Source: an uncultured Verrucomicrobiae bacterium
GTDB lineage: Bacteria > Verrucomicrobiota > Verrucomicrobiia > Chthoniobacterales > JAFAMB01
DNA length: 64,000 nucleotides
Assembly: GCA_963750185.1 (NCBI GenBank)
Contig: CAVVPV010000007.1
Span: forward strand, 24,310-88,309
Reading direction: 5' to 3'
Part shown: piece by piece, positions 26,475 to 43,440 of the stretch
Layout of the letters: each line of letters begins with the position of its first letter
Position numbering within the stretch: the first letter of the stretch is position 1
Position numbers and translations under genes: made by a program
Notes under the pieces: generated by a model
Databases searched by the model: none
What the model was told of the DNA's origin: nothing
The model's input: the letters and a program-made list of their open reading frames with translations, nothing else

Positions 26475-26607
26475 TGCGGATTCCCTGCCAATAAAAATTA
26501 ACTGGAAAAATATCGCTCAAGTAACTCAAAAAATAAAACGTAACTATTTAGTGAAACAGATTGCGCTTTGATCAATAAATTGTTTAGAGTTCCGAGGGAT
26601 TAGCGAA

Positions 26608-27882
26608 ATGGATTTCCAGAGATTGTTCAAACGAAAAGAGGAGGTTGCCACCCATTCGATGGCTGGGGAGCACCAGAAAGAGACGTTGGGCAGCCGGAGT
26701 GTGTCACTTTCTGAAGGCGATCTATTGGACGGTCAGGCGCCTGCAAACCTTCTCTGGAACAACGTGGGCGGTACGATCAGCGTGAGGGCGGACAAGATAC
26801 TCGGGATCCTCGAAGGACGGACACGGATCAAGGGGGCGGTTCTTCAGGAGATTTATCCGGCGCTATTCGAAAAGGATCCGCATCCGGGCACTGAGTTTCT
26901 CATCCCGCTCCAGATCGTCGTTACGCAACTTGAGGATGTTTTTGCTGCTATTTCATCCGGGGACCTGGGCGAGGAGAATTTCGAAACGCCGTTTGGTCAG
27001 CTTGCCCGGGAGGATGACGCCAGGTTTAAAGAGGGAACCGAGCCGGTGAAGCCCCCCGCGAAACCGATCGTGCTTACCGGGCAACCGAATGGAGTAACGG
27101 AAGGCCGGAACACACCGGTTCGCGAAGCCAGATCGAACGGCTCGGTTACAGTCCATTTAACGCAATCGCCGAACGGCGCTGCGCCCGTTATAGAGACTGA
27201 AGCGACAAACGGTGCCCCGACCGGGGTTGAGCAGAAACCGGTTCCTTCGCCGGATTCGATTCCGGCGCTCCCGATAATTGACGATGTTCAGGGCGACGCG
27301 CAAAGTTCTACAGTTCGGGGAACCACTGCATCGCCGAAGGAAGCGGAGAACCGCGCATGCCAGTCGTTGCCGGCGGATGCCAAAGCTGAACAGTCGCCGT
27401 ATCGCAGGCCGCGCGGCGGCAATCTCTCATCGGAATCTCCGACCGGTCTCCGCCACACTCAGAACAACGATGTTCGCCGCGAATGGCACGAAGCGTTGCA
27501 AGAACTCTTTCTGACCGACGAACAGCTTGATGGGTCCAAGGTCGCTGACCTGGTGTTGCAACTCCCCCGCGTTGCCGGCGTTGTGATCATGTTGGCCGAC
27601 GGCGCGGTCCTGGGAGGCGTCCTGAGCGGCGGACTCAACGAGTCGCTTTTGGGTCTTGCGCCTGGGTTCGTGCAGGATCTGGTCCGATTTACAGAGAGCA
27701 TGCGCGGCGGCCCGACCCGGTTCGTGACGCTTGCCGGGAACGCCTGCCTGATCAGCCTGACCATTGCCGGACAGGTGCTGATATTAGTTGCTCATGATGG
27801 GAAGAATCTTCCACCCGGTCTTCGCGAGCGTCTCGTGGCTACCGCGCACGCATTGAACATGATTTACGGTCCGCGGCCGTGA
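26608..27882 (+). CDS. Protein with disordered linker and C-terminal Roadblock/LC7-like domain
   Basis: Pro/Ser/Thr-rich middle; C-terminal VLQLPRVAGVVIMLADGAVL...LILVAH Roadblock-like pattern. Confidence 0.55.
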   Translation: MDFQRLFKRKEEVATHSMAGEHQKETLGSRSVSLSEGDLLDGQAPANLLWNNVGGTISVRADKILGILEGRTRIKGAVLQEIYPALFEKDPHPGTEFLIPLQIVVTQLEDVFAAISSGDLGEENFETPFGQLAREDDARFKEGTEPVKPPAKPIVLTGQPNGVTEGRNTPVREARSNGSVTVHLTQSPNGAAPVIETEATNGAPTGVEQKPVPSPDSIPALPIIDDVQGDAQSSTVRGTTASPKEAENRACQSLPADAKAEQSPYRRPRGGNLSSESPTGLRHTQNNDVRREWHEALQELFLTDEQLDGSKVADLVLQLPRVAGVVIMLADGAVLGGVLSGGLNESLLGLAPGFVQDLVRFTESMRGGPTRFVTLAGNACLISLTIAGQVLILVAHDGKNLPPGLRERLVATAHALNMIYGPRP

Positions 27883-27894
27883 AAAGAAAAGATC

Positions 27895-28317
27895 GTGGCC
27901 GGCTGCAGCGACAAAGAATTAATGGCGTGGGATTTCCGATCTTTGATCGGGTGCCTGCGCGAATATCAACGGAATACAGAAGCTGTCTGCGCGCTGCTCG
28001 TTCAGGATGATGCAGCCATCCTGGCGAAGGTCGCAACTGACGCTGATTTTGATACTGATACCTTGGGGGTTTGCTCGGCGATGATATTTGCAACCTCGCG
28101 CATGCTACTCGGAGAACTTGAGACCGAAGGCGATGTTCTGGGCCGAATCACAATTGGGACCAACTACAATCTTCTCGTCATGGAGATTACGCCGAAGATC
28201 GCTCTGGCGACTCTCTACAGAAACTGGTTTTCCACGGGGCTTCTAGAACACCAGGCGCGGGCGATTATGCCGCGGATGATCGATTACCTCGTTCGCGAGG
28301 GCTCGGAGGTCTCATGA
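27895..28317 (+). CDS. Roadblock/LC7 (MglB-like) protein
   Basis: EAVCALLVQDDAAILA...DTLGVCSAMIFATSRMLLGEL...STGLL resembles MglB. Confidence 0.7.
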   Translation: MAGCSDKELMAWDFRSLIGCLREYQRNTEAVCALLVQDDAAILAKVATDADFDTDTLGVCSAMIFATSRMLLGELETEGDVLGRITIGTNYNLLVMEITPKIALATLYRNWFSTGLLEHQARAIMPRMIDYLVREGSEVS

Positions 28318-29138
28318 TCCGTTCAGCGCTTGCTTCACCTTGGTTGCCGCTGGCTTATTGGACCGCGATTGTTTGCGCAGCCCTTTGCGCGCTACCCCAA
28401 TACCTGCGTAAGGGTCATACGCAACGCTCGTCGATTGCGAAGGTCTCCGACGTAGTAACGGCCCAGGTCAATCGTGTGTCACAGGTGGTTCAATCGCTCC
28501 CTGGAGAGAATTCGATCACAAGGCATCGCGAACCCTTTCATGTTTGGGTTCCCGCGGTCCTTTGCCTCAGAGGTTTCGATCGCAAGCCGGTCGCAGCAGA
28601 GGTCGAACCAAGAAAAGTGCCGACCGTCGCCGAAGCGCTGCGGAGTCCGACACCTGCGCCGGTTACGATGCTGTCAATTCGAGCAGATTCGGCGGAGGAA
28701 CCGACTGCAAACGTGTTATCGATTGAGTGCCGAACGAGTCTCGCGGTCAGCAATATGCATGGCCGGGCAGTTTCTATTCATGGCGTCGTTACGCAGGAAG
28801 TCGTCTCTCCCGCCGGAAAGATCCTGATTATGGCCGGCAGCCGGGTTGCTGGATCCGGTTTGTTCGATCCGGAGAGCGGACGGTTAAGATCCAATAGGGT
28901 CTGGACGATCGTCTTCGAAAACACTGAAATGAAGGTCCGTGCGCTTCTACTGGATCGTCCCGGCGGCCTCCTCGGCGTCATCGGGCAAGTGAAACAGGGT
29001 GAAAGCGTGCTCGCCACCGCAAGCGCTGACTCCGAAGGTGGCAGGCTTGAATTGGTTCCCGCGAACACACCGTTTACACTCGAACTGCACGGGGAAATTC
29101 AGCTTCGAGACCTCGCGTCAAACGAATCGGAGTACTGA
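28314..29138 (+). CDS. Membrane-anchored protein with TrbI/VirB10-like C-terminal domain
   Basis: One N-terminal TM, Pro-rich linker, IECRT...IHGVVTQEV...KILIMAGSRVAG...WTIVF...LLDR..GLLGVIG...VPANTPF pattern. Confidence 0.55.
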   Translation: MIRSALASPWLPLAYWTAIVCAALCALPQYLRKGHTQRSSIAKVSDVVTAQVNRVSQVVQSLPGENSITRHREPFHVWVPAVLCLRGFDRKPVAAEVEPRKVPTVAEALRSPTPAPVTMLSIRADSAEEPTANVLSIECRTSLAVSNMHGRAVSIHGVVTQEVVSPAGKILIMAGSRVAGSGLFDPESGRLRSNRVWTIVFENTEMKVRALLLDRPGGLLGVIGQVKQGESVLATASADSEGGRLELVPANTPFTLELHGEIQLRDLASNESEY

Positions 29139-29197
29139 TGATCGCATTCTTAAATACATCCGAACATAAAGCCAAATCAAACATTGATAGGAGAATT

Positions 29198-29650
29198 ATG
29201 AAACCCAGAGTTGTAACCAAGGAGCGACAGGAGGGGATCTCGCTGATTCAAGTGCTGCTGGCAATTTTGCTTGGCGCATTGACCGTAACCTGGGCTACGA
29301 ACACGATCGTCAACGGAATGGAGAAAGGGATCGCGACGAAGACGTTGACCGTAGTCGATGCAATTCAACAGGCGAAACAACAATTCCTGGTCGACAACCC
29401 GGAAACCGATCCCAATACAGCCGCCTCTTTCGCAAATCTCCAGCCGTATCTCATGGTTATGGGCATTCAGGTGAACGACGAATCGCAATTAATGGCGGGG
29501 ACTGGCGGGCGCACAATCTCGAATTACGGGTCATTCAATACGGGGATTACTTTGAGTAAATCGATCGATCCGAATTACGTGACGCCGAGTATGAAGCCGA
29601 TTGTTGTGATGATAAACAACGGTCTTGCTTCCGGCTCCACGGTTCAATAG
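29198..29650 (+). CDS. Major type IV pilin/pseudopilin
   Basis: RBS aggaga; class III signal RQEG/ISLIQVLLAILLG; AIQQAKQQF. Confidence 0.75.
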   Translation: MKPRVVTKERQEGISLIQVLLAILLGALTVTWATNTIVNGMEKGIATKTLTVVDAIQQAKQQFLVDNPETDPNTAASFANLQPYLMVMGIQVNDESQLMAGTGGRTISNYGSFNTGITLSKSIDPNYVTPSMKPIVVMINNGLASGSTVQ

Positions 29651-29755
29651 CTGGTCTCCTCGTAGAAAGTCGATGCCATCCGAAGAAAATGCCTTGCATT
29701 CCATCGAGGCGCTGATTACAAGCACAATAGACTACGTATATAATATAACGTTGTT

Positions 29756-30970
29756 ATGGCCGAGTTTGTTGCTGTTATTCAAGTGAGCCGGAATGGTCCG
29801 TTTCTCGCCAGAAATCTGGTGGGCAAATCGGCCGGCGAAGTTACGGCTCGGTTGCTGGATTCCGGGCTCGCCGTGGCGCAAGTCAGCGAACGGCATCTTT
29901 TGCATCCGTTGGCGCAGGCAAAGATCTCAATAAAGGATATCGTATACTTTATGGAGCAGCTTGAAACCACGCTGTTTCTTGGGATGGAACCTAGAATCGC
30001 GCTGAAAGCATGTGCGATTACAATATCGCAAAAATCAAAATCCGGGAGGAATCTGCAGCGCGTTGTTGGAGCCATGGAACGGATGGTTGCCGGTGGCGAA
30101 AGTATTGCCAATGTGGCGAGACAGTTCCCGAATCTATTCAGCAATGTTGCTGTGGGCCTGCTCGAGGCGGGCGAACGATCGGGAAGCATGAACGAAAGCT
30201 TGCGATCGATCCGCGTTCTTACCGCACGGACAGAAAGTGTTCGGCACCAGATCAGCATGATGCTGTTACAGCCGGCGATCACTCTGCTGATGGCGACGGT
30301 TACAGTTGGGGTGATGGTCACCTACATCGTTCCGCAGTTTCGATCGATCCTGGATTACCTCGGCGGAAAGCTGCCGTGGCAGACTCAGCTAATGATTTCG
30401 ATCAGCGACGCGGTGAGCGGTCATCGAATCCTTTTCGTGACAGCATTGGCAGCCTGTACGTACGCTTTCGTGCGATTGCCCGCGTACGTCACAAGGCATT
30501 CCTGGACGCATCGATTCGTAGTCGGAATCCCAGGGGTCGGCCGGTATTTGCTTGCTGGGATACGAACAAATTTTATTGCTGCATTCGCGCAGCTTAAAAA
30601 AAACAAGATGACTAACCCGACGGCCCTGATGCTGCTGAAGGATATCAGTTGGTACTATCCGTATCGGACTGCCATCGCGCGTGCGAGCATGGGCTTGAAG
30701 TCGGGCGAATCGCTGGCTAACGTCCTTGCAGCAGAGACAGACATCATTGGGGAGCGTAACATTCAGTATTTTCGCTTTATTGAGGAGACTGGTTCAGATG
30801 TAGACCAGTTAGAGCGACTGGCAATACTGATGAACCGGGACCTCGATGCTGACACGGAACGGTTCAGGACGATCTTGAATCCGTTGATTTTGATCGTGCT
30901 TGCCGTCGTCGTTGGGATGATCGCCGCCGCAATCATACTTCCGATGTACGAGATCTATAACAATATCTGA
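29756..30970 (+). CDS. T2SS GspF / T4P PilC platform protein
   Basis: GESIA...FPNLFS...EAGERSGSM, IVPQF...GKLPWQTQ, GESLA, AIILPMYEI. Confidence 0.92.
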   Translation: MAEFVAVIQVSRNGPFLARNLVGKSAGEVTARLLDSGLAVAQVSERHLLHPLAQAKISIKDIVYFMEQLETTLFLGMEPRIALKACAITISQKSKSGRNLQRVVGAMERMVAGGESIANVARQFPNLFSNVAVGLLEAGERSGSMNESLRSIRVLTARTESVRHQISMMLLQPAITLLMATVTVGVMVTYIVPQFRSILDYLGGKLPWQTQLMISISDAVSGHRILFVTALAACTYAFVRLPAYVTRHSWTHRFVVGIPGVGRYLLAGIRTNFIAAFAQLKKNKMTNPTALMLLKDISWYYPYRTAIARASMGLKSGESLANVLAAETDIIGERNIQYFRFIEETGSDVDQLERLAILMNRDLDADTERFRTILNPLILIVLAVVVGMIAAAIILPMYEIYNNI

Positions 30971-31087
30971 CGTTCAGACAGATTGGAGAAGGCAATTTCA
31001 AGAATTGGTTGCGCATAAAAATAACATAACTAGACGACAGTTACGAGATAGATATGACGCGGACGAGATTGCGACATTGATACAGTC

Positions 31088-32080
31088 ATGTTGAACGATA
31101 TTCAGACATTTATCCGGGAAATGCCGCTGCGGTACTATGTGAGAGGTGGGCTATTTTCACGACAAGAGCCGATGATCGTGTTCCACGTAGGCGAGGAGGA
31201 GGTCGAGGCGCTCGTGTCCTACAGGAAAAAGGCGTTCGGATATGAGGACGAACTCCACCGTGACCCGGATGCGCCTCCGACGACGTCGTACGGGCAAGCG
31301 TACAGACCGGGTGCGAACGGAAGGAGAGTCACAGCGAAACTTGCTTCCAGATACCGTGTTCCGCAGCGGTGCCAGCATCTATTTGTTGTTGATACTCCGG
31401 CGGACGAGCTGTTTCTCAATCTCTTCACTCTTGAAAAGTTGCGCAGGCGAACAATCGATGAGGCTCTGACGGATCTTCGCGAAGCACCGGGACAAATTTT
31501 GTCCGGATGGGACCGGCCCGATTTTCGATGGCATATCCTGGATCCCGACCTTCGACTTTCCGGCAGCACAAAAGGAGCAAGCGATGATCCGATCCTGGTC
31601 ATTGGCCTTTCGGAGAATGTCTGTTTGCCGTTCGAATTCTGGAGCGACGAACAGGGAGCCGCGATCGTCGGAATACTGCCGTTGGCCGTGGCTGTATTGG
31701 CATGGTGTAATGCGGTGCTCCCGACCGATAAAAGAGATTCTGTCATCCTTGTGGCAGCCGAAAAAGGGGTTGTCGCGGCGATCATAAAGCGCGGAAAGCT
31801 CACGAATTTACTTCGCGCTCAGACGATTGACGACGTGCTGAGCAAGATTCGGCTGAATCTCGACGAATTCGGGCTTGAGGATCCGGCGGTGTATCTCTGG
31901 TGCTCAAACCCAGGGGAACCAGGCGATGATGATGTGAGCTACGATGGTATTACGATCATTGATGAGGATCACCTCAGGGCGGTACTCGGTGCGCCATTGC
32001 TTGTGATGGCATCAACCGGAAAGCGGACCGCTCACGACAGACCTGTCCCGCATCTATTAAACTGGTTAGCCAAACAATAA
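31088..32080 (+). CDS. PilM/GspL-like cytoplasmic accessory protein (divergent)
   Basis: Soluble 330 aa; position before the PilN/O/P-like genes. Confidence 0.45.
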   Translation: MLNDIQTFIREMPLRYYVRGGLFSRQEPMIVFHVGEEEVEALVSYRKKAFGYEDELHRDPDAPPTTSYGQAYRPGANGRRVTAKLASRYRVPQRCQHLFVVDTPADELFLNLFTLEKLRRRTIDEALTDLREAPGQILSGWDRPDFRWHILDPDLRLSGSTKGASDDPILVIGLSENVCLPFEFWSDEQGAAIVGILPLAVAVLAWCNAVLPTDKRDSVILVAAEKGVVAAIIKRGKLTNLLRAQTIDDVLSKIRLNLDEFGLEDPAVYLWCSNPGEPGDDDVSYDGITIIDEDHLRAVLGAPLLVMASTGKRTAHDRPVPHLLNWLAKQ

Positions 32081-32092
32081 AACGAGGTTTCT

Positions 32093-32746
32093 GTGCAGCC
32101 TTTTTTTGTTTCGGAAGAAAAACTGTCAAAGCAAGCGTACCGGTACGATTCCCGGTACCGGATTGCCGCGTTGGCTGTGATTGGCGCCATAGCGCTCCAG
32201 ATGCCGCTAGGTTTTTTTATGCTTGTTGAGAATCTAGTCAGGTCAGAGCAGGAAACCCGAGAAGGTCTCGCAGTCCAGAAAAAGATACAACTCACTGAAA
32301 GTCTTGGCGCCTTCAAAGAGACCGAGTTGCAGATGGAGCAAATTAAAAGCTGGGAACCGATTTTGCGAGGCAGGATGCCAGTGAGCGCAGTCATTGGTGC
32401 TGTCGAACAAACGATACCACCTGGTGTTGTTCTCTCCAGAATGGCTGTGGAAGCGGCGGGCTACCACACGGTCCCACTCGGATCAGAGATATTCCGTGTC
32501 CCTGAGATATACACGATCACACTCAACGGCGTATTGAACGGAGATAACCTGCAGGAGTGGAAGGAATTCATTGGTCGACTCCTGCGAAGGCTTCCTCCGG
32601 GCAGCAGTGTGGTTTCCTGCGTTGCCGATTCTGGCAAGGATTCGAACAAGGTCCCAACGGCTTGCAGCGCCACGCTGCAGGCTCAAGCCAATGGCAATTA
32701 TTTTCCACTTGGAGTCAGCAAGATCGATGCGGAGGGAAATTTATGA
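32093..32746 (+). CDS. PilN-like bitopic protein
   Basis: TM, coiled coil, then VEQTIPPGVVLSRM...ITLNG. Confidence 0.65.
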   Translation: MQPFFVSEEKLSKQAYRYDSRYRIAALAVIGAIALQMPLGFFMLVENLVRSEQETREGLAVQKKIQLTESLGAFKETELQMEQIKSWEPILRGRMPVSAVIGAVEQTIPPGVVLSRMAVEAAGYHTVPLGSEIFRVPEIYTITLNGVLNGDNLQEWKEFIGRLLRRLPPGSSVVSCVADSGKDSNKVPTACSATLQAQANGNYFPLGVSKIDAEGNL

Positions 32747-33339
32747 CGAGAAGATCGAGTCCGGTTCTGAAGAGGGACCCGAGGAGCGCAGTTTTGCTGA
32801 CCCTGGTACTTGTCGGTATCGTCGTTTGTGAAGTGATCTCACTCAGTTGCTTTTCGACAAAGAATAGTGTGCTGCGGACTGCGAACGAGCGGCTAGAAGC
32901 TGCAAATCGGCAGATGGAACGGCACATCTCGGAATTGCGATCCAGTGCGGAAAAAATCGCTGCGACGTTTGCGCGGTTGAATGACGGGATCGTTCGAGTA
33001 TCTCGAAATGAAGGGCGGTTGCCTGTTCCCGGCCGGAATACAAAGGACGATCCTGACGTCGTTGACAACCGAATTGAAAAATCGATTCGGAACTATGGTT
33101 TCATCGTCAAGCCGGTTGACGGACCGCATCATGAAATGAGCGTCATGTTCGAGGCCGGTTCAAACAGCGTCGAGCTTCATCGTTTGCTACCATTTCTGGC
33201 AGAACAGGAAAATTCGAACGCCTTTCTCTTTCTCGAGAGAGTCGATCTTGCCAGGCCGGCTGGGGTCCCCGCTTTTTCGATGAATCCAACTGCACTTGAG
33301 ACCCGTCTTCTAATCCGCGTCTTATCCGGACCAAAGTAG
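32743..33339 (+). CDS. PilO/GspM-like bitopic protein
   Basis: ATGA overlap with previous gene; TM, coiled coil, HRLLPFLAEQEN...LERVDL. Confidence 0.6.
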   Translation: MTRRSSPVLKRDPRSAVLLTLVLVGIVVCEVISLSCFSTKNSVLRTANERLEAANRQMERHISELRSSAEKIAATFARLNDGIVRVSRNEGRLPVPGRNTKDDPDVVDNRIEKSIRNYGFIVKPVDGPHHEMSVMFEAGSNSVELHRLLPFLAEQENSNAFLFLERVDLARPAGVPAFSMNPTALETRLLIRVLSGPK

Positions 33340-33912
33340 ATGATTAGACTAATCGCTCTCACTTCGATTCTGGCTATATGGGCGAGTATCCTTCACGCCC
33401 AGGTCCAATTGCCGGATCTATATTCTTATCACTATACGATGACTCGGCGGGATCCGTTTATTTCCGCCGATGCTCCAAAGACAATCATTGATGAGCATCA
33501 GGAGCCGCGCGGAATCGTCAGCGGCGATATCGTTAGTCGATATTTGGAGAATATTGTTAAACTAATCAAGAATCAGCTCTATCTCGGCGGAATTTCAATT
33601 GGTGACACGCCGTTTGAAAGTATCGCTCTCATCAACGGTGTCGATTTCCATGTGGGAGATAAGGTCCCGTTGGATGCCGCTAGCAAGGATCTCCAGAGCA
33701 TCCAACAGTTGGCTGCGACATATGGGCTCCCATTGGTGACCGACCAGAAGGGGACGTTTGTTGTCGAAGTAGGCCGTGTATCGGAGAACGGCGTCGATCT
33801 GGTTCTCCCGGGCTTCAAAGCGGTGATCTACCATCTGCCCCTGCCGAATGACAGTGCGTCTGACGTGGTCCGGCTCGAGAAGAAAAAGAAAAAACCGCGA
33901 CCCAGCAATTAA
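33340..33912 (+). CDS. PilP/GspC-like exported protein
   Basis: Signal peptide, RRDPF motif, LGGI...ALING...VGD...VGRVSENGV; precedes the secretin. Confidence 0.6.
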   Translation: MIRLIALTSILAIWASILHAQVQLPDLYSYHYTMTRRDPFISADAPKTIIDEHQEPRGIVSGDIVSRYLENIVKLIKNQLYLGGISIGDTPFESIALINGVDFHVGDKVPLDAASKDLQSIQQLAATYGLPLVTDQKGTFVVEVGRVSENGVDLVLPGFKAVIYHLPLPNDSASDVVRLEKKKKKPRPSN

Positions 33913-33926
33913 TCTGAAGCTCGGTC

Positions 33927-35672
33927 ATGTTCAAAACGATTACAGGAGTGAGTCTTGTCATTTTCCTAGCGATCCTTGGCGCGCTGGGACAGGAGACTCC
34001 GCGTCAAACGCCGCAACTCATCGACGAACAAGCAACTCCGCCGGGATCCGCGGCAAATTCCCCAACTGCCTCGCCAGCACCTGGTTCTTCACCGACCACG
34101 ACAGATGACTTGGAGCGTGCGATCAAGCAACATGAGGAAGCGCAACAACCGCAGGAGCCGGAGGTTATCGATCCGGCCCGTCCGCGGACCCATCGGTACA
34201 CTGATCAGCCCGTTGGAAGTATCTTACGTGCGCTTGCTGAACAAGCCGGAATTAACTATGTCGAGCCTGGAATCCCCGAAACAGAGGTTACGTCGGTCGT
34301 GCTGACGAGTATGACGCCGCTCCAGGCTTTTGAGGCGGTCGCCCATGCGCACGGGTTCAAGATTCAAATCGACCGCGAAACCGGTGTCTACACGCTTGAA
34401 CGCTCAGACATCGCTTCCCCCAGCTATTACGAAGTCCGGCGCTATACGTTGAGCTATCAGGTCGCAGAAGATCTTCTCCAAGCTGTAGCCGGATATCTTG
34501 GGATTCAAATTAATTCGGCTGCCGACTCAAATCCGGCATACCCGAAACCGAGAAATACTGGAGGAGGTTCCGCCGCCTCTTCCGGTGCGCAGGATGTGAC
34601 ATCCGGAGCGCAATCACTTTACTCTGCTGGAACCGAACAGACTAATCCACGGTTCATCTCTGGTTTGCCGTTTGACGATCCACTCTCGACCGGCGGGTTT
34701 GGGAACGGGAAGGAGAATGCGGTGTGGATCGAACGCTCCACAAATTCTTTGATGGTCCGCGCGACGCCGCGCGAGCACGAAGGATTATTGGAACAAATCC
34801 GTTTCTGGGATCGCGAAGAGAATCAAATTCAAATTAACACCTATGTTATCGAGATCACCAAGAACGACGATCTTTTCGGCGGAGTCGATTGGAGCAACAC
34901 GCTTGGACAGAATGGAGCCACGTTCACCCTGACAGGAAATGTTGGTGCGACACCGGTTGGGATTACATCGGCCGGGTTTGGCGGCCCGTTTTTTAACAAT
35001 GGGCTCATTTTGAAGTTCCCCGACGTTGCAGCGACGATCAGGGCGCTCACGCAACGTGGAAAGCTGCGTTCGAATAACTCGCCGATTACATTCACGAAAA
35101 CGGCCGTGCCCGTTCAGATCAGAAGTGTGACGCAGCAGACGATCTTCTTGCAAACCGCGGCGACGGCGAATGTGCAAGCCACGACAACGCCATATACGTT
35201 CACGACCGGGCTGACGATTGATCTCGTCGGGCGGATTCTGAAGGGTGGTATCATCGATTTAAAGATTAACCCAGCTCTCTCGACTCAAACGGGACAATCA
35301 CCGGCTCAGCCCGGAACGAATGCAACAGTGCCGATAATCTCGACCAGGACGGCAACCGCAGACGTTCAAGTTAGAAGTGGTGACGCAGCCGTCATTGGAG
35401 GCATCACCCAGGATGTCGATAACTATACGGAAAATGGAGTGCCCGGGGTGAGAAAATTGCCAATCATCGGTTACCTTCTGAGTTCAAGACAGAAGATGAA
35501 GGACCGGACGAATCTCGTGATCATCGTTTGGCCGCGAATCATTAAAGGGACAATGGAGAGAAAAGTCCGGGTAGGTTCTGATGAAGGGGAGATGCTTAAT
35601 AATATGGCTGATTTGCCAGGTGAACCGCCACCGGTGCCATTTGGGCGGGATGGGAAAGAGGCTCACCAGTAG
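33927..35672 (+). CDS. Secretin (GspD/PilQ family)
   Basis: Signal peptide, STN-like N domain, TNSLMV, GVDWS, ISTRTATADVQVRSGDAAVIGG, GVPGVRKLPIIGYLL, NLVIIVWPRII. Confidence 0.93.
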   Translation: MFKTITGVSLVIFLAILGALGQETPRQTPQLIDEQATPPGSAANSPTASPAPGSSPTTTDDLERAIKQHEEAQQPQEPEVIDPARPRTHRYTDQPVGSILRALAEQAGINYVEPGIPETEVTSVVLTSMTPLQAFEAVAHAHGFKIQIDRETGVYTLERSDIASPSYYEVRRYTLSYQVAEDLLQAVAGYLGIQINSAADSNPAYPKPRNTGGGSAASSGAQDVTSGAQSLYSAGTEQTNPRFISGLPFDDPLSTGGFGNGKENAVWIERSTNSLMVRATPREHEGLLEQIRFWDREENQIQINTYVIEITKNDDLFGGVDWSNTLGQNGATFTLTGNVGATPVGITSAGFGGPFFNNGLILKFPDVAATIRALTQRGKLRSNNSPITFTKTAVPVQIRSVTQQTIFLQTAATANVQATTTPYTFTTGLTIDLVGRILKGGIIDLKINPALSTQTGQSPAQPGTNATVPIISTRTATADVQVRSGDAAVIGGITQDVDNYTENGVPGVRKLPIIGYLLSSRQKMKDRTNLVIIVWPRIIKGTMERKVRVGSDEGEMLNNMADLPGEPPPVPFGRDGKEAHQ

Positions 35673-35721
35673 GGGTAATGCCTATTATCTGAGTGCGTTG
35701 CGGCAACGAAAGGGGGTACAT

Positions 35722-36201
35722 ATGAAACGAGAGGAGATAGAGCAGAAGACCCGTCTAACTTGTTGGTCACACGCTGGATTTAGCCTGGTGGAAACGATCA
35801 TCAGCATCGCCCTCCTGGCATTTTCTGTCGCGGGCTCATTCGAACTTCTGCGACTATCCGATCTGCAGGCGAAACATACCTCGGTCGACAATAGGATCAC
35901 AGAGTTGCTTCGGGAATATAGCGACTACGTCCTGTACCTGGACTACAACCGATTGCCGAACGATGGGGAAAGTCTTGGGCAAGGATATCTTTATGAAGTG
36001 TACGACTCGGCGTCGAAAACCTCGAGAGGATTTTACCACTACCTTATCACCGTGAATGTCCAGACATACAATTCAGGGACAACCGGAGAGTACAAAAATA
36101 TTACAGTTAGCATGAACTGTCAGGCGGATGAGCACGCATACTCTGATCAGCTTGTTACCCAAACAATCGTGAGTGATGCCATTACGCGTTCAAAATCCTA
36201 A
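35722..36201 (+). CDS. Minor pilin (PilV/GspI-like)
   Basis: AG/FSLVETIISIALL class III signal. Confidence 0.85.
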   Translation: MKREEIEQKTRLTCWSHAGFSLVETIISIALLAFSVAGSFELLRLSDLQAKHTSVDNRITELLREYSDYVLYLDYNRLPNDGESLGQGYLYEVYDSASKTSRGFYHYLITVNVQTYNSGTTGEYKNITVSMNCQADEHAYSDQLVTQTIVSDAITRSKS

Positions 36202-36739
36202 GTCAAAATCGAGAACCGAAGGTTTCAGCCTGCTTGAGGTTCTGGTCGCACTGTCAGTTCTTGCGGTCGCGTTATTCGCGGTTGGACAGACAATCACGCT
36301 TGTGTTGCTTCGGACGACAGCCGCTATGGAGACAGCGCGCCAGGAAGATCAGGGTGCGCGCTTTGTGGCGAGCATAACTCTGGCGACAAAAACTGCGACC
36401 GAGTGGGGCATTTATTCGAATCAGGTTGCCTACAACAAAGGGTCGAACGCGAATTTGGCAGCGGCCGGAAATATTCTTGAATGCAAGTCCGCTACTGAGT
36501 CGGGGACCGGCATAGATTATCTGTTTGTTTACGATCCGGCGGCCCGGACTTTGAAGAGATACGAAAACGGTCTGAATACGGATCGGATGACTTTGAAAAA
36601 CGTCTCTCCTGTGCCCGCGGAGACGGACGGGCAGATTTTTGACCAGGATCAGGGCCTTGTTCAAGGACATTGGCAATTGTCGGTTCGTGGCCGGTTATTG
36701 ACCTTTGCGGCTTACGGTACGCCGCTACACATGCGGTAG
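36173..36739 (+). CDS. Minor pilin (PilW/GspJ-like)
   Basis: EG/FSLLEVLVALSVL class III signal. Confidence 0.85.
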   Translation: MMPLRVQNPKSKSRTEGFSLLEVLVALSVLAVALFAVGQTITLVLLRTTAAMETARQEDQGARFVASITLATKTATEWGIYSNQVAYNKGSNANLAAAGNILECKSATESGTGIDYLFVYDPAARTLKRYENGLNTDRMTLKNVSPVPAETDGQIFDQDQGLVQGHWQLSVRGRLLTFAAYGTPLHMR

Positions 36740-36760
36740 CTTAAGCCTGGAGGAGCGCAT

Positions 36761-38035
36761 ATGGACAACAATCGCAAGCGACGGCAGCAACGCGGATATG
36801 CCCTGGTGGCCTGCCTGGGTGTCGTCGCGATAACGGCTATTCTCGTCCTGATGATTTTTTCGTTCACGGAGGCGACTCAAGAAGCAGCGACGAAGCGGCA
36901 GTATCAGGACCGTGGAGAAGAACAAATTGAAGCGGAATTATCCGCGCTTCATAGCGCTATCGAGGCGAATTTTCGGGCAAATGCGCAAGTTGAGATCAGC
37001 GGGCTTTCTTCGAATTCCGGTCAATCCACTGGAGACCTCAAAGATGGCATGTACAACGTCGCCATAGCGGCCAGGGGGAGCCAGTCTGTTATAGAGGCAA
37101 CCGAGACGCACTACAGCCCAAGTCAGTTGAGCGATGGTGACGATCCATTTCGGGGTGCAACTGCATCTACGATTGAAATTGACGTGACCGGTACAGCGAA
37201 CCGCCTCGGCGTGACGAAGCCCAATGGTGATAATGACTATCTTTCGCTTAGCGCGCACCCTGTCTTATCGATCCGGCAAATACCGTTATCCGAGTTCTCT
37301 GTCTATTCCGGCGGCGGCGATATCGCCTTGAACGCGACGGCGACACCGAATATCGGGCGGATTTACATTAACGGGAACCTCAATATCAGCGGCGGGATTG
37401 CGAACTCTTCGTACCCAGTGACAACATTTGGTGATGTTATTCTCGGCGGAGGCGCCGGACTCGAAGCGCGGTCGAGTCCTAAGGCGGCTCCGATCGCGCT
37501 CCCGGTGACAACCACTGCCGACGATAAATGGCCCTCGTTGGCTAAATCGACCCAGGAATCTACCGTGCTGACAGGTCGCGATTTACCGATGTCCATGGTT
37601 CAAGCGACGTCAAAGGACGAGCTGACAGCGCCTCCTTTGCCTCCCAACACGGATCAGCAAAAGGACCGCCTCCGACTTTGGCGTCAATGCTCGCGCGTGA
37701 TTTCCGAGAATGCCGGAAAAATCACTGTCACCGGAGGAGCGTCAAACGAGGAAGAGAATTACAAGGTAGCGCGGACGCAAATCTACAATGCGTGGGGTCC
37801 GCCCATCATCGTTTTCGATGCGGCAAAGATTGCGCCAGGCGCAGGGAAAACCAGTTTTTACATCGGATCAACGAGTTCAACGGCGGCAGTGTATGTGATC
37901 AACGCGGGCACACTGACCGGTGACCTAACAATTGTCACGCCCCATCCAATCCTTATCAGGGGCGGATTTAATGCGCAGGGTACACTGCACGCAGCGAGCC
38001 TGATTACGGCCCAGGGAGTATTTGCAGTTCCATGA
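36761..38035 (+). CDS. PilX/GspK-like large minor pilin
   Basis: QRG/YALVACLGVV (no E5, typical of PilX/GspK); GRIYINGNL beta-rich C-domain. Confidence 0.75.
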   Translation: MDNNRKRRQQRGYALVACLGVVAITAILVLMIFSFTEATQEAATKRQYQDRGEEQIEAELSALHSAIEANFRANAQVEISGLSSNSGQSTGDLKDGMYNVAIAARGSQSVIEATETHYSPSQLSDGDDPFRGATASTIEIDVTGTANRLGVTKPNGDNDYLSLSAHPVLSIRQIPLSEFSVYSGGGDIALNATATPNIGRIYINGNLNISGGIANSSYPVTTFGDVILGGGAGLEARSSPKAAPIALPVTTTADDKWPSLAKSTQESTVLTGRDLPMSMVQATSKDELTAPPLPPNTDQQKDRLRLWRQCSRVISENAGKITVTGGASNEEENYKVARTQIYNAWGPPIIVFDAAKIAPGAGKTSFYIGSTSSTAAVYVINAGTLTGDLTIVTPHPILIRGGFNAQGTLHAASLITAQGVFAVP

Positions 38036-38054
38036 ACGGGCGGGAACAGGATTT

Positions 38055-40250
38055 ATGTCAGCGCTTACCGCGATGAGTGAACCGTGGAGTCTGGACGTGG
38101 CGGAACAGCCTTTGCAGGTTCTCCTGAATTCGGTTGTGATTGAGCCATTCAGACTGAACGGGCCTAATCACGAGAGCACTAGTGGGTTCCTCAAGTACCT
38201 CGACGAACTCGATCAGGATTCCAACCTGCTTTCAGCCTGGCAGCACCCATCGTTTTACGAATGGGCTATCCTCCGGTTCCGCAGAGATCGATCCGAATTC
38301 TTTGGGACACCCAACGAGCTGTTCGCTGCTCTCTTTCGGTCTAATAGGGAGGGACCGCATGTAGCGGTCGATATCAGCAACTATACGCCGGTATCCGGCG
38401 AAAGGATCAATATGCCGGCCGTCCGCATCCCGCTGGTTCCGATTGCGTACCGGTTCTCACATGGCCAGAAGACTGCGGACGAGGTGACGGTGGCGAGCTG
38501 GATACCTGGGCTGGCACACGCGATCAGAGGAGTTCATTGGTCGGTTTTGAATCGATTTTTTGGAGCCAGGAAAGTTCATTGCGTCTGGTGCGATCCCGAA
38601 GCGATCCGTGCGTTCCTGGCTCGGAATGCGGATCGCATCGTGATCACACCGAGGTTGCCGGAGAACGACGTCGTGCCTCGAAAAGAGTATCTCAACGGTC
38701 AGGGGAGACCCTGGATCGATCTGAACGATTTCGCGTTTCCGGAGGAGCTGTTGAAGCGGTTGACTGTGACGCTGTTCAAAGCGATCCCGGTCTATTGGTC
38801 GGAGTGGATGGCGACGCTGGCGGTAAGTGAGAAGCTTTCGCCAGATGATCACAACTATCTTTCCCAACTTTATCAGCATCGTGTCACGTTCGGGGAAGTC
38901 GACGCAGAGCCGCGCCATCTGGAAAAATGGCTGGCACACGCCGCCAATAGCAAAATCAATATTCCCGGACTCGCCGATCGGCTCAAGCCAGTCAGCGACA
39001 GCTCGAGTATCCATGTCAAAAAAGTCGAACAGGTCGATCTCGAGAAACTCAACCGGCAGATCGCCCAGGGCAAAATCTCCACGGAGGATGTTGTTCATTT
39101 GATCCTCACTCGCGGAATTGATCTCGACGTTTCCGATATTAAACTCCGATCCGAAGACCTTAGCGGGCTGTATGTTCACTACAAAACCAACGGTTACTGG
39201 ATGAAACCGCTCCGTCTTCAGTGGGAAGCGGCAAACCTGATTATCTCCGTCCTGAAAGACAAAGCCGGTTTGCGCACTGAACGGATCGACATTCCGCAGG
39301 ATGGTCAGTTCCAGATCGGTCACAATCAACGAACCTATTTGTTTCGGATCCACACCTCCTATCATGTGACCGGTGAACAGGTAATCCTGCGCATGAAGCG
39401 TGACGCGACGTCGATCCGATCGCTTGCGTCGCTCGGACTGCCGGAGAGATACGTTGAAAAGATTCATCAAATTCTGCATGGCCGAACCGGGCTGATTGTT
39501 TTTTCCGGACCGACCGGGTGCGGCAAATCAACAACGATCTACAGCATCCTCAACGAGTTCGATCCGCTTCAGCACAACATCCAGACGGCAGAGTCGCCGA
39601 TCGAAGTTGTGATCCCGCACGTGAACCAGGTGGAGATCAGCGATTTTGGTCGCAACACCTTTTTGAACTGGGTTCGGGGCATTGTTCGGGAGGCTCCTGA
39701 TATTCTGATGATGGGTGAGATCCGCGATTTTGAGACGGCAGACGCTTTGTTGCGCGTGGTGAACACTGGACATCGGGTCATTACGACGCTTCATGCCAAT
39801 TCGGCTGCAATGGTTCCGATCCGTTTTTTGCAGCTTGGCGTGCAACCCTACCTCCTTGCATCAACGCTTCGGATGGCCCTTTCGCAGTGTCTTGTCAAAA
39901 TGGTCTGCACGCATTGTGATGAGGAGGTGCCGATCCCGAGTGCACAGAAACTTCGAAAAATGAGAATCGATGCTGACTGGTTGGGCGGCGCTGAATCATT
40001 CAAAGTCGGGCGGGGATGCAGTCACTGCAACGGGACCGGCTTTGAGGGCCGGAAGGCGCTGTACGAAGCGTTGATCGTAGACGAAGAAATCGCGCACGAG
40101 CTCCACGGCCAGCCAACGCCTGAGCGGTTGCGTCGATTGATGCTCGAGCGAGGAGAGGCGACTTTACTGGAGAAAGCGGTTCGAGAAGCTGCGCGCGGGA
40201 CGATCAGCCTGGAGGAAGCAACACAACTGGCGCTCGAACTGGCGGAGTAA
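38055..40250 (+). CDS. GspE/PilB assembly ATPase
   Basis: SDIKL, PQDGQF, Walker A GPTGCGKST, ILMMGEIRD, TGHRVITTLH, CxxC...CxxC zinc motif. Confidence 0.95.
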   Translation: MSALTAMSEPWSLDVAEQPLQVLLNSVVIEPFRLNGPNHESTSGFLKYLDELDQDSNLLSAWQHPSFYEWAILRFRRDRSEFFGTPNELFAALFRSNREGPHVAVDISNYTPVSGERINMPAVRIPLVPIAYRFSHGQKTADEVTVASWIPGLAHAIRGVHWSVLNRFFGARKVHCVWCDPEAIRAFLARNADRIVITPRLPENDVVPRKEYLNGQGRPWIDLNDFAFPEELLKRLTVTLFKAIPVYWSEWMATLAVSEKLSPDDHNYLSQLYQHRVTFGEVDAEPRHLEKWLAHAANSKINIPGLADRLKPVSDSSSIHVKKVEQVDLEKLNRQIAQGKISTEDVVHLILTRGIDLDVSDIKLRSEDLSGLYVHYKTNGYWMKPLRLQWEAANLIISVLKDKAGLRTERIDIPQDGQFQIGHNQRTYLFRIHTSYHVTGEQVILRMKRDATSIRSLASLGLPERYVEKIHQILHGRTGLIVFSGPTGCGKSTTIYSILNEFDPLQHNIQTAESPIEVVIPHVNQVEISDFGRNTFLNWVRGIVREAPDILMMGEIRDFETADALLRVVNTGHRVITTLHANSAAMVPIRFLQLGVQPYLLASTLRMALSQCLVKMVCTHCDEEVPIPSAQKLRKMRIDADWLGGAESFKVGRGCSHCNGTGFEGRKALYEALIVDEEIAHELHGQPTPERLRRLMLERGEATLLEKAVREAARGTISLEEATQLALELAE

Positions 40251-40252
40251 TG
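39882..40252 (+). repeat. Copy 1 of a 371-bp direct repeat (3' end of the ATPase gene)
   Basis: Matches 43007-43377 with 5 mismatches by eye. Confidence 0.95.
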
Positions 40253-40774
40253 GGTGACCAAGGGCGCTGCAACTGTTTGAGTCTGCTCGCGGCGATGATA
40301 GTCCTCTAAAAGAAAACATTGAAACAGACAATCTTTGTTTCCAGCTTCCGGTTAGCCGGCGCGATGGCGTCCTAACTGCCGAGCTAGCTTTCCGCCACAT
40401 TGACCAGTCTCGGCAGTATAGTAATCGGATCGTCCAAGGGCCCATCAAAATACTGAACAGCACCTTGAGTCCCGGCGTGTTGAAAAGATGTGCTGTTGAT
40501 GTTTACTTTTTTTACCACCACCGGCGTTGCACGCTTAGGTTCCGGGATCTCGGTTCTCTTAGAGTGCGACGGTCTCGGCATCAATTCGGGGGAATGGCTG
40601 GATCGCCCTGGCTCGCGTCAAAAACACGTCGGGGCGCAAAACTCATAAGCTTGCATTTTTGCGGAAATGCATCAGGTGGTTGCTCTTTTTGGCAACTTCC
40701 TCTATGGGTTTGGATGCTTTTGACGATATGTGCCCCTCACGAATCGTGAACGACTCACGCACGGCGGAACGCTC

Positions 40775-41587
40775 ATGAGTAGCCCGATAAAATATCAGAA
40801 TCCACCTGTGGCGGAAGTCGCATTCTCGGCCTCATTTCAAACGGCAAAAACGATGTCCGCAGCGTTTATAGGCATTTTTTGGTTGCAGATACGGGACGAC
40901 TTCCCGAAACTAACCGAGAATTCGCCTCTACCGATTATAACCGAGTCTCCAAAGGACTCCGTTGCGGCTGAGACGCTGCAGATGCAGGTCCAAATGCTAA
41001 ATTTGCCTGATTTGCGGAGAAGTATCTTAACGAGTCATGATGGAAGGCGCATGATTCAGATTCAGCAAAACAAGTTCATATTAAATTGGAAGCGGGGCCA
41101 AAGTAGCACATACTCTGATTTTGAAACCGCACTAGCCGCATTCGATTCAATGCTCGAACGATTGAGTAAGGCCCTAGTGGCGGAAGAATTCGGCGAAATC
41201 ATTTATAACCAGTATGAGTTACAGTATGTTAATTTAATTGGACCGGACAATGGTCTTGCCCTTGTTGGCGAGGGAGGTGTACTCGTGGATCATACTAGGC
41301 AATCTTCGGGTGAGCGCTTTTTGCCGGAACCAACCGCGTTCAATTGGACGTCGTCGTATCAACTCCCGAATGGAATGGGCCGCTTACATATAGGTGCTCA
41401 AGCCGTCCTTGTGCCACCGGAGAACCAACGCCACGTTCGTCTTGACGTACTGGCGAGGGGGTTCCCCCATAATGGTGAAAGCGTTAGCAAAGAACAATGG
41501 TTTCAACTTGCTCACGAGTGGATTGTGAAAGGATTCACGGATTCTACGTCCTCGGTTCTCCACGCTCAAGCCTGGAAGCGACTATGA
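40775..41587 (+). CDS. TIGR04255-family protein
   Basis: YQNPPVAEVAFSASF, MIQIQQNKFILNW, ELQYVNLI, WFQLAHEWIVKGF. Confidence 0.8.
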   Translation: MSSPIKYQNPPVAEVAFSASFQTAKTMSAAFIGIFWLQIRDDFPKLTENSPLPIITESPKDSVAAETLQMQVQMLNLPDLRRSILTSHDGRRMIQIQQNKFILNWKRGQSSTYSDFETALAAFDSMLERLSKALVAEEFGEIIYNQYELQYVNLIGPDNGLALVGEGGVLVDHTRQSSGERFLPEPTAFNWTSSYQLPNGMGRLHIGAQAVLVPPENQRHVRLDVLARGFPHNGESVSKEQWFQLAHEWIVKGFTDSTSSVLHAQAWKRL

Positions 41588-42450
41588 AGTTGATTAGGAA
41601 AGACATTTCCTTGAGTGGTAGTGATTGGCAAGATGCTGACACTCGCCACGAGGTAGAGCACTTCTACGGTGGGAGTTGCAAAATTAGCACAATGGTAAAC
41701 CTGCGGGTGTCTAGTCCGCCGATTAGTGATGCATTTGGGGAGCCACTACGTTTCGAGACGGGGCCTCCTCCCGCAATCAAAACGGCGATTTCCGCCGATG
41801 CTTCGATTACTCTCACGCCAATTACTAGTCTCAATGTTTCCGGTTGGCAACCCCCTGGGTCGCGGGTATATCAAAGCGAGTCACTGCCGTTCGCTAAACG
41901 GGCTGAGCTATTTGAAGCGCTAAGCAAAATAAACGCTTATTTTTCAGACATCGAACGTAGTGCGGATATTTCTTTAGTTTTATGGCTTGAACCCATGGAA
42001 CAGCGCCGCTTGTTTCAAGTGAAATATACACCGCTGCCAGTTGTAGGCGAGACTTGGACGATCGGACTGGATAGCCAAACTATGGTGGTATCCAACCCGG
42101 AAGCCCGTTTGAAATGGGAGGTACTTGACAGGGACCCATTTCTGTTGTCCGAAACTGTCAAGGAGGCCCAAACGAAAGCGCAATCAGGCGAGTTCGCAGC
42201 CGCGTATAAGTTGATCTTTCGTTGTTTGGACCGGGCCATGAAGGCAGGGGCTCTTGACGATATTGATTCTGTGCTTTCAAACATCAGCGCCGAAGATATG
42301 ACCTTGGAAATATTGATCGCTCTATTAACAGCGACGTTACCGGTCAGAACGCGGCTACCCGCTCGCAAGGCGTTTTTTCTAGCGACTGAGAAAGTGGCCA
42401 AAGATCGCAATCGGTGGAGTAAATCTTTGCTTTCCGGTCTAGAGGGTTGA
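41584..42450 (+). CDS. Hypothetical protein, translationally coupled
   Basis: ATGA overlap with the TIGR04255 gene; helical C-domain LIALLTATLP...LLSGLE. Confidence 0.7.
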   Translation: MKLIRKDISLSGSDWQDADTRHEVEHFYGGSCKISTMVNLRVSSPPISDAFGEPLRFETGPPPAIKTAISADASITLTPITSLNVSGWQPPGSRVYQSESLPFAKRAELFEALSKINAYFSDIERSADISLVLWLEPMEQRRLFQVKYTPLPVVGETWTIGLDSQTMVVSNPEARLKWEVLDRDPFLLSETVKEAQTKAQSGEFAAAYKLIFRCLDRAMKAGALDDIDSVLSNISAEDMTLEILIALLTATLPVRTRLPARKAFFLATEKVAKDRNRWSKSLLSGLEG

Positions 42451-42803
42451 TGCCAATGTGCGCGTTGCTGAGACGTGTGCCGGATTCAAAGTGCGCGGAA
42501 ATTGAGGTAGCCGCAGTTACAATTAAAACGATTAACGATGGCCAAAGGCACATCGGCATAGCGTTTCGCGAGGACGAAGAATGTTGCAAACTGTTGCATT
42601 TGGCATGGCACTACAAGATGCGCCTGGATAACGTAGATGCGACTTTCTATTGGGTTGAGCACAAGATAGATCAACTTAGGCTGTACGGCGTTTTGGCATT
42701 TTGCGACCTTATCATTCAAGCGAATCCCGCGGGCATACCGTATGCCTTCGATTCTCCCAATGATTGCTTCGAAATTTTGCAGCAGTTGACAAGAGGCGAA
42801 TGA
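42450..42803 (+). CDS. Hypothetical protein, possibly a C-terminally truncated permuted papain-like enzyme
   Basis: TGATG coupling; QRHIGI...LHLAWH...IPYAF, stop soon after. Confidence 0.5.
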   Translation: MPMCALLRRVPDSKCAEIEVAAVTIKTINDGQRHIGIAFREDEECCKLLHLAWHYKMRLDNVDATFYWVEHKIDQLRLYGVLAFCDLIIQANPAGIPYAFDSPNDCFEILQQLTRGE

Positions 42804-43006: not shown

Positions 43007-43377
43007 TCGCAGCGCCTTATCAAAATGGTGTGCACGCATTGTGATGAGGAGGTGCCGATCCCGAGTGCACAGAAACTTCGAAAAATGAGAATCGATGCTG
43101 ACTGGTTGGGCGGCGCTGAATCATTCAAAGTCGGGCGGGGATGCAGTCACTGCAACGGGACCGGCTTTGAGGGCCGGAAGGCGCTGTACGAAGCGTTGAT
43201 CGTAGACGAAGAAATCGCGCACGAGCTCCACGGCCAGCCAACGCCTGAGCGGTTGCGTCGATTGATGCTCGAGCGAGGAGAGGCGACTTTACTGGAGAAA
43301 GCGGTTCGAGAAGCTGCGCGCGGGACGATCAGCCTGGAGGAAGCAACACAACTGGCGCTCGAACTGGCAGAGTAATG
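43007..43377 (+). pseudogene. Orphan duplicate of the ATPase C-terminal ~122 codons (copy 2 of the direct repeat)
   Basis: Near-identical to 39882-40252; lacks Walker motifs and a credible start. Confidence 0.93.
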
Positions 43378-43440
43378 GCCACAATTCTTTTTTCGGTCAG
43401 TCAGGAAAACACAACGGTCGTTCGCGCTTGAAGGATTAAA

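Follow-up and report, generated by a model that had tools for sequence, protein, structure and literature searches.

A gene for a VirB10-like protein that lacks the outer-membrane antenna was found to reside in a secretin-containing pilus operon of an uncultured Verrucomicrobiae bacterium. It lies in the window, i.e., the whole 64,000-nucleotide stretch of DNA that was analysed. Judged from sequence, the bacterial family concerned keeps a domesticated chromosomal T4SS (type IV secretion system), and the window gene is an antenna-less paralogue of its VirB10. T4SSs and type IV filament systems count as distinct machines, each with an outer-membrane channel of its own, the VirB10 antenna in the one and the secretin in the other; if the two machines were physically joined, one would expect just such a part as a natural and conserved VirB10 that has no antenna and is encoded in a secretin operon.

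The open reading frame at 28314-29138 (+ strand, 274 aa), which contains the motif GVVTQEV...ILIMAGSRVAG, was confirmed as a real gene. As originally predicted, its ATG overlaps by 4 nt the stop codon of a 140-aa Roadblock-like frame, and a pilin frame follows directly, with a 1-nt overlap between the stop codon of the VirB10-like frame and the first pilin ATG. The true pilin start may lie ~60 nt further on, after an AGGAG site; orthologues measure 150-168 aa and carry motifs of the GLTLVELLVV type. The gene and its surroundings comprise the following features:

26608..27882, + strand: 424-aa protein that ends in a Roadblock/LC7-like domain (C-terminal; Pfam Robl_LC7 E 0.051, below cut-off) and has an N-terminal region without known family.
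27895..28317, + strand: 140-aa Roadblock (MglB-like) protein (Pfam Robl_LC7 E 0.045, below cut-off).
28314..29138, + strand: antenna-less VirB10/TrbI-fold protein, 274 aa, with a hydrophobic N-terminal segment (residues ~4-31), a disordered linker (~38-115), and a beta domain (~116-270).
29138..29650, + strand: major-pilin-like protein, so assigned from its sequence, with the class III signal-like motif EGISLIQVLL; no match in Pfam or NCBIfam.
29756..30970, + strand: PilC/GspF inner-membrane platform (PF00482 E 9.7e-26).
31088..33912, + strand: four conserved genes in the PilM, PilN, PilO, and PilP positions (labels positional only), with their order kept in related loci and without significant family match.
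33927..35672, + strand: secretin (PF00263 E 2e-27).
35581..38035, + strand: three minor-pilin-like genes (N_methyl E 2.7e-4, 9.5e-6, and 0.031).
38022..40250, + strand: PilB/GspE assembly ATPase (PF00437 E 1.6e-74).

With PF00437, PF00482, PF07963, and PF00263 represented, the host operon is a secretin type IV filament system of the T4aP/T2SS type. The 140-aa neighbour described as MglB-like has a sub-threshold Roadblock match of its own; a fused relative (P0136) matches the domain at E 6.9e-6. P0136 (389 aa) holds the Roadblock domain (residues 24-109) and a VirB10-like domain (215-387) in one frame, which could be either a fusion or a read-through of overlapping genes. Among the loci compared, the 140-aa gene is present only in those of genus g1, the window's genus. 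For residues 1-140 of the 424-aa protein, the Atlas matches were unnamed Verrucomicrobiota clusters only. The GC content at the region of the VirB10-like gene displays no foreign signature, a plasmid collection gave no match, and no RNA holder is listed for window positions 26600-31000. Further along the window, the final 372 bases of pilB/gspE (39882-40253) are repeated 2.75 kb downstream (43007-43378) at 98.7% identity, and the repeats flank three unrelated ORFs (40730-42803), an arrangement that looks like the outcome either of an insertion that duplicated its target or of a tandem event in the recent past. Directly after the duplicated pilB end, a 284-aa ORF (43441-44295, + strand) has a weak match to Peptidase_C58 (YopT-type cysteine protease; E 0.0023, below cut-off) and is a possible secreted effector.

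AlphaFold2 was used to model the window protein from an alignment of 105 homologues. The model features a helix at residues 10-49, disorder at residues 38-130 (pLDDT < 50), and a confident all-beta domain at residues 120-266 without a helical hairpin. Of the predicted succession of transmembrane segment, Pro-rich linker, and beta domain, the beta domain is present, and the linker is disordered and only moderately Pro-rich (9 of 86 residues, 10% Pro). The best PDB matches obtained with Foldseek were F-plasmid TraB (E 2.7e-4), Xanthomonas citri VirB10, pKM101 TraF, CagY, and TrwE. VIA, which re-aligned Foldseek's matches only, gave Z 11.1 (rmsd 3.5, 117 aligned residues) against X. citri VirB10 (6gyb_C); scores of Z 7.2-11.1 were reached by 14 VirB10-family entries, and the first unrelated one followed at Z 3.7. 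Profile-profile comparison with Verrucomicrobial full-length VirB10s reached 98.4%, and with larger alignments (hhalign) 99.2% at E 1.1e-19; this alignment spans residues 115-268 with one long gap, and the identity to full-length VirB10s is ~24%. The Verrucomicrobial T4SS VirB10s are the closest sequence kin of the window protein, and a VirB10 profile picks out the window ORF in its own genome (G000, 87% complete) at E 2.2e-12. Taken together, fold and profile comparisons settle the C-terminal domain as a VirB10/TrbI fold, as had been predicted.

Pfam returned no match to the 274-aa sequence, and NCBIfam T4SS_VirB10 (NF038091) gave E 0.0076 and 15.8 bits versus a cut-off of 220. A search collected 144 homologues of similar length; Pfam recorded one TrbI match (E 0.075) among 105 close homologues, and a profile of these 105 found no match in a PDB sequence search. 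PF03743 matched 15 of 63 homologues at E <= 0.01 (best 5.5e-6), all members scanned remaining below the cut-off. When 1.84 billion representatives were searched with a profile, 56 proteins came up; among the scanned matches of the weak tail, eight are bona fide TrbI proteins above the Pfam cut-off. In the ESM Atlas, TrbI clusters (0.89) rank directly after two unnamed Verrucomicrobial clusters at the top, which is taken as a lead only. A second candidate VirB10-like ORF in G000 (C27:5032-5859) was rejected, as it reads as an ABC-type ATPase and is missed by both profiles.

The antenna, which the original prediction had described as apparently missing, is indeed absent. With a conserved Gly and the Phe in the last strands as anchors, the spacing amounts to 25-34 residues in 63/63 homologues versus 79-98 in 50/50 full-length VirB10s. 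In the window protein, the antenna (~55 residues) is deleted between residues 224 and 240; the model contains no helices at this site, and the hhalign gap falls there too. The strand preceding the barrel is retained (PVTMLSI, resembling PLTIYAA of VirB10). At the N terminus, an uncharged stretch of 28 residues with a peak hydropathy of 1.6-2.0 is like the anchors of full-length VirB10s; in the ~205-aa forms of other genera the segment comprises 13-18 residues, is signal-like, and may be a cleaved signal. A crude A-x-A count (12/63 homologues vs 6/50 full-length VirB10s) does not separate signal peptides from anchors. Since the protein lacks three VirB10 features, namely a score above the cut-off, the antenna, and the T4SS gene context, it is classed as a derived paralogue.

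In a first alignment, matches were obtained in 34 of the 43 genomes of the window's family (9 genera) and, weakly, in 2 of 400 other genomes of the phylum. A broader alignment was run against 401 genomes from the order. At E <= 1e-40, only the window's family gave matches that reached the model end (34 genomes, and in G407 a piece of 81 aa). Those in the order's other families had E >= 7.5e-18, ended at the antenna gap, and mostly lay in frames of 330-600 aa, so that they are probably ordinary VirB10s; a few were opened. A tree of 100 domains unites the 50 homologues in a single clade (SH-aLRT 100), which has a long branch and is divided into sub-clades along genus lines. Because this is a quick tree without outgroup and with a long-branch warning, from which 13 near-duplicate homologues were left out, no donor is claimed.

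The statement that VirB4, VirB9, and VirD4 are missing from the window is true of the window and of its contig C7, on which VirB4, VirB9, and a coupling protein gave no match, but the genome holds a VirB2-VirB10-like cluster twice, and the family keeps a coupling protein. The two near-identical copies of this 11-gene T4SS cluster (locus L085) are located as follows:

C22:9484-20613, + strand: T4SS cluster copy, near a contig end.
C38:1217-12355, - strand: T4SS cluster copy, 97-100% identical to the other and likewise near a contig end.

The pair is either a real duplication or the assembly of two strains. The cluster encodes a VirB2-like pilin, a VirB3-like protein, a 949-aa VirB4/TraC-like ATPase, a lipoprotein, VirB5-, VirB6-, and VirB8-like proteins, VirB9, full-length VirB10, a second lipoprotein, and a ClpB-type AAA domain, with the VirB3, VirB5, VirB6, VirB8, and lipoprotein labels given by position and appearance only. 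The ATPase matches TraC/VirB4 models at E 7e-24, below cut-off; the VirB9 candidate has no family match and a fold like TraK/VirB9/DotH (E 3.9e-11); the VirB10 lies above the PF03743 cut-off; PF04956 gave a weak match (E 0.0012). The stand-alone ClpB-type AAA domain (~310 aa; L085:11667-12611 and orthologues) occurs in the chromosomal cluster and also on elements of another family, f10. The cluster thus contains the VirB4, VirB9, VirB10, and VirB2-like pilin components of a T4SS, and the family keeps a coupling protein. An intact VirB2-VirB10-like cluster being present in G000 and in the family, the window protein is a paralogue beside a T4SS and not an orphan.

Full-length VirB10 above the Pfam cut-off was found in 36 of the 43 family genomes and a divergent coupling protein in 38. 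A VirB4-like gene was detected in 40 by protein query, mostly at 70-93% identity, versus 4 by PF03135; a family-wide chromosomal T4SS is thereby exposed that is largely invisible to standard profiles. The idea that this T4SS has no coupling protein, raised by negative PF02534 and PF10412 searches in G000, is refuted by the 38 genomes; none was found in the G000 assembly (87% complete), in which both clusters lie near contig ends. T4SS gene order was identical in the 12 loci opened, and flanking housekeeping genes are common to different genomes; T4SS and pilus occupy fixed chromosomal sites, beside what we take to be nadC or accD/folC-like genes. TrwC relaxase is patchy (21/43 genomes, many fragments) and was found neither in G000 nor in G408 (95% complete, two contigs). 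With the queries used, TrwC, serine recombinase, and coupling protein had no match in G000, and the window locus is not classed as an ICE. In G000, the PF00437 matches are accounted for by three genes of the PilB/GspE type, a PilT-like gene, and a fragment, with no VirB11-like gene among them. Two further type IV filament loci of this genome have their own PilB and PilC (C5:2996-14692 and C27:8330-24065), the C27 locus also containing a secretin and a PilT-like gene.

Family f10 belongs to another order of the class. It has the same T4SS type, and in 4 of the 23 non-family loci opened VirB10 leads on into genes for a lipoprotein, PilC, pilins, the secretin, and PilB, on elements that carry TrwC relaxase, coupling protein, and serine recombinase and hence qualify as ICEs. 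The pilus genes of these ICEs are 25-32% identical to those of the window and no closer than other G000 pilus loci, so that the elements are a precedent for the pairing of T4SS and pilus and not a proven ancestor; direct descent of the window pilus from the f10 ICE pilus is unsupported. Within the window's family, a Rep-like initiator gene (NCBIfam RepM E 2e-17 and 2e-13, below cut-off) stands beside the coupling protein and a second VirB9. At L087:13414-16765 and L161:1108-2433, the Rep-like gene and an unknown 145-aa gene adjoin the coupling protein at 77-95% identity across genera, and paralogues of these genes adjoin the second VirB9. The Rep-like gene is apparently a plasmid replication gene domesticated on the chromosome.

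The ICE-borne state of this T4SS type in f10, the Rep-like genes beside coupling protein and VirB9 paralogue, and two broken copies of the VirB10-like gene (in G407 and the second copy of G426, possibly from sequencing error) speak for a relic without function, left by an integrated conjugative element and lying in the operon by chance. We attach only a very slight probability to this explanation, and the original suggestion of a relic, taken as a decaying leftover, finds no support in the selection data. The dN/dS ratio is 0.11-0.34 in ten homologue pairs (many dS values vs G421 being saturated) and, vs G423, 0.16 for the domain and 0.66 for the linker; moreover, the gene is intact in 34 genomes of 9 genera, every member has the same deletion, and the sub-clades follow the genera. 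The gene is under purifying selection and clearly not decaying, and a dead relic is unlikely, being largely refuted by these data. The VirB10-like gene nevertheless evolves faster than the pilus and T4SS core genes, its identity to the G423 orthologue being 51% versus 61-85% for nine operon neighbours and 71-91% for six T4SS genes.

Gene neighbourhoods were counted over 40 loci, one per gene copy. The most constant neighbour is a Roadblock-domain gene of the 424-aa type, directly upstream in 35 of 38 scorable loci, and 20 of 29 scorable loci have pilus genes within 3.2 kb downstream. Apart from the VirB9 paralogue, itself present in two loci, core T4SS genes occur in none of the 40, and the gene is thus, as predicted, a T4SS-type gene resident in a secretin/pilus operon outside T4SS clusters. 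VirB4, whose co-occurrence was proposed as a check, is present in 40 of the 43 genomes and in none of the 40 homologous loci. On the two points set beforehand as counting against the original prediction, a TrbI-like fold turned out to be present, and the homologues are not confined to complete T4SS loci. Nine copies have no pilus genes downstream, five of them in genomes with a second copy that does; in G402, G438, and G441, the pilus operon is located away from the VirB10-like gene. A cognate pilus marker was detected in 35 of the 43 family genomes, and in genus g1 the VirB10-like gene has been duplicated along with the pilus operon. The gene was not found in G401, G403, and G409 (the last 94% complete), all of which have the pilus operon; these genomes, and G407 with its 81-aa piece, indicate that it is not essential to every pilus copy. 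In genera g188 and g191, a conserved secreted protein is encoded between the VirB10-like gene and the pilin (L050:12251-13222 and L055:10240-11079); its HEYGH motif is zinc-metalloprotease-like, and NCBIfam gave no match to the protein. In G000, the gene for a homologue of this protein (C15:30847-31743) follows a Roadblock-domain gene paralogue and lies 5 kb from comEC.

Pilus and T4SS genes are interleaved elsewhere in the family. In eight genus-g1 genomes, the second VirB9 heads a unit with a DUF4388 protein and mostly also a small GTPase, presumably MglA-like by its motif, and a PilT-like ATPase; the unit is mostly preceded by the Rep-like gene. In G412, G421, and G424, the second VirB9 lies within ~7 kb of the operon with the VirB10-like gene, and the DUF4388/GTPase/PilT unit stands beside the T4SS cluster or its coupling protein in six genomes that belong to four other genera. 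The VirB9 paralogue is absent from the G000 assembly (87% complete), and g188/g191 genomes show a single full-length VirB9.

One explanation for this gene context is that the protein has left the T4SS altogether and, working like helpers of the TsaP or FimV type, serves the secretin pilus as an accessory periplasmic strut or an assembly/positioning factor whose placement is due to the Roadblock/small-GTPase module. We regard it as possible, if on the doubtful side. The stop/start overlaps with the Roadblock and pilin genes, the downstream pilus genes and missing core T4SS genes, the duplication with the pilus operon, the long branch from all VirB10s, and the lack of a VirB9 paralogue in several genera agree with such a helper. 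It is harder to reconcile with the pilus operons of G401, G403, and G409, which do without the gene, with the interleaving of VirB9 paralogue and T4SS genes with pilus control genes, and with the conservation of the full barrel and leading strand, which would be expected if core-complex contacts were kept.

The reading that we prefer, put forward tentatively and held to be a little short of an even bet, is that of a pore-less, membrane-anchored periplasmic scaffold that would act in the style of a core complex with a VirB9-type partner and couple the secretin pilus to the chromosomal T4SS. Without an antenna, a VirB10-fold protein would have no outer-membrane pore of its own. The N-terminal segment would anchor it in the inner membrane, and the beta domain would still build a ring, by analogy with H. 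pylori CagY, which without its antenna assembles a normal Cag T4SS core complex that is non-functional for secretion (PMC11024343). The ring partner would be VirB9 or its paralogue, the C-domains of VirB9 and VirB10 being described as paired in the O-layer (PMC6536674), and passage through the outer membrane would be supplied by the secretin or by full-length VirB10. A pore-less ring at the secretin pilus could thus link the pilus to the T4SS, and the joint machine might, at a guess, serve contact-dependent delivery of protein or DNA at the pilus-marked pole. Given the conserved barrel and preceding strand and the ring of antenna-less CagY, a pore-less periplasmic ring is the simplest mechanism, and the protein may work with the chromosomal T4SS rather than purely within the pilus. 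A complex prediction for the beta domain (residues 110-274) with the C-terminal half of G000 VirB9 (140-290) scored 0.00 versus a mark of 0.32 and weighs neither way. Coupling is favoured further by the T4SS genes present in the family, by their interleaving with pilus genes, and by the f10 elements on which VirB10 leads on into a pilus cluster. Against coupling stand the 9 of 29 scorable loci without downstream pilus genes, the pilus operons of G401, G403, and G409 that do without the gene, the missing VirB9 paralogue in the G000 assembly and in g188/g191, the faster evolution of the gene, and the short N-terminal segments that may be cleaved; co-occurrence within one family of related genomes is not independent evidence.

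It appears unlikely to us that the protein belongs to the core complex of the chromosomal T4SS as a regulatory or alternative subunit, i.e., a pore-less spacer or gate in the VirB10 ring, and that its gene owes its site in the pilus operon only to being regulated together with the Roadblock module. Because antenna-less CagY assembles and does not secrete (PMC11024343), a copy of this kind could have a modulating role in a ring; 36 of the 43 genomes have a full-length VirB10 at hand, and copies away from pilus genes are intact in 9 loci. Nonetheless, the gene is never located within a T4SS cluster, it accompanies the pilus operon upon duplication, and a profile identity of ~24% to full-length VirB10s makes mixed rings doubtful. 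A further extension of the coupling reading seems improbable as well: a hybrid nanomachine in which the pore-less VirB10 and a second VirB9 would together build a T4SS-like periplasmic ring docked under the secretin, so that retractile pilus, MglA/MglB-like switch, and domesticated T4SS would form one contact-dependent delivery device, with the secretin replacing the lost VirB10 pore.

In the open-access literature, we found no description of an antenna-less VirB10 in a pilus operon nor of a T4SS in Chthoniobacterales or Spartobacteria; neither "VirB10" nor "Verrucomicrobia" occurs in the main text of a survey of type IV filaments (PMC6668835). Compared with the VirB10/TrbI/TraB family (PF03743; X. 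citri VirB10 6GYB, pKM101 TraF 3JQO, F TraB 7SPC/7OKN, H. pylori CagY, ComB10, and the Legionella DotG dome), the window protein shares the N-terminal hydrophobic segment, the disordered linker, and the C-terminal beta-barrel fold, and it can be aligned with Verrucomicrobial VirB10s over the whole barrel. It differs by the absence of the two-helix antenna that forms the outer-membrane pore and by a score below the PF03743 cut-off; its gene lies in a pilus operon, never in a virB cluster, and coexists with full-length VirB10. The IncI thin pilus and ICEs of the PAPI-1/pKLC102 type represent conjugative elements that carry a T4SS together with a type IV pilus. In these and in the f10 ICEs, as in the window's family, T4SS genes occur with secretin-pilus genes; there, however, VirB10 is full length and the unit mobile, whereas the window's family has fixed sites, a patchy relaxase, and an extra truncated VirB10 in the pilus operon. 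The ComB system of H. pylori is likewise a conjugation-derived T4SS fixed as core genes, with a VirB11 of its own, ComB11 (PMC13395361). In DNA uptake, ComB takes the place of the pilus; in the window's family the coupling protein is kept, the pilus coexists, and a VirB11-like gene was not found in G000. The engineered CagY without antenna is a laboratory mutant devoid of secretion (PMC11024343), whereas in its natural counterpart, the protein of the window's family, the deletion is fixed and under purifying selection.
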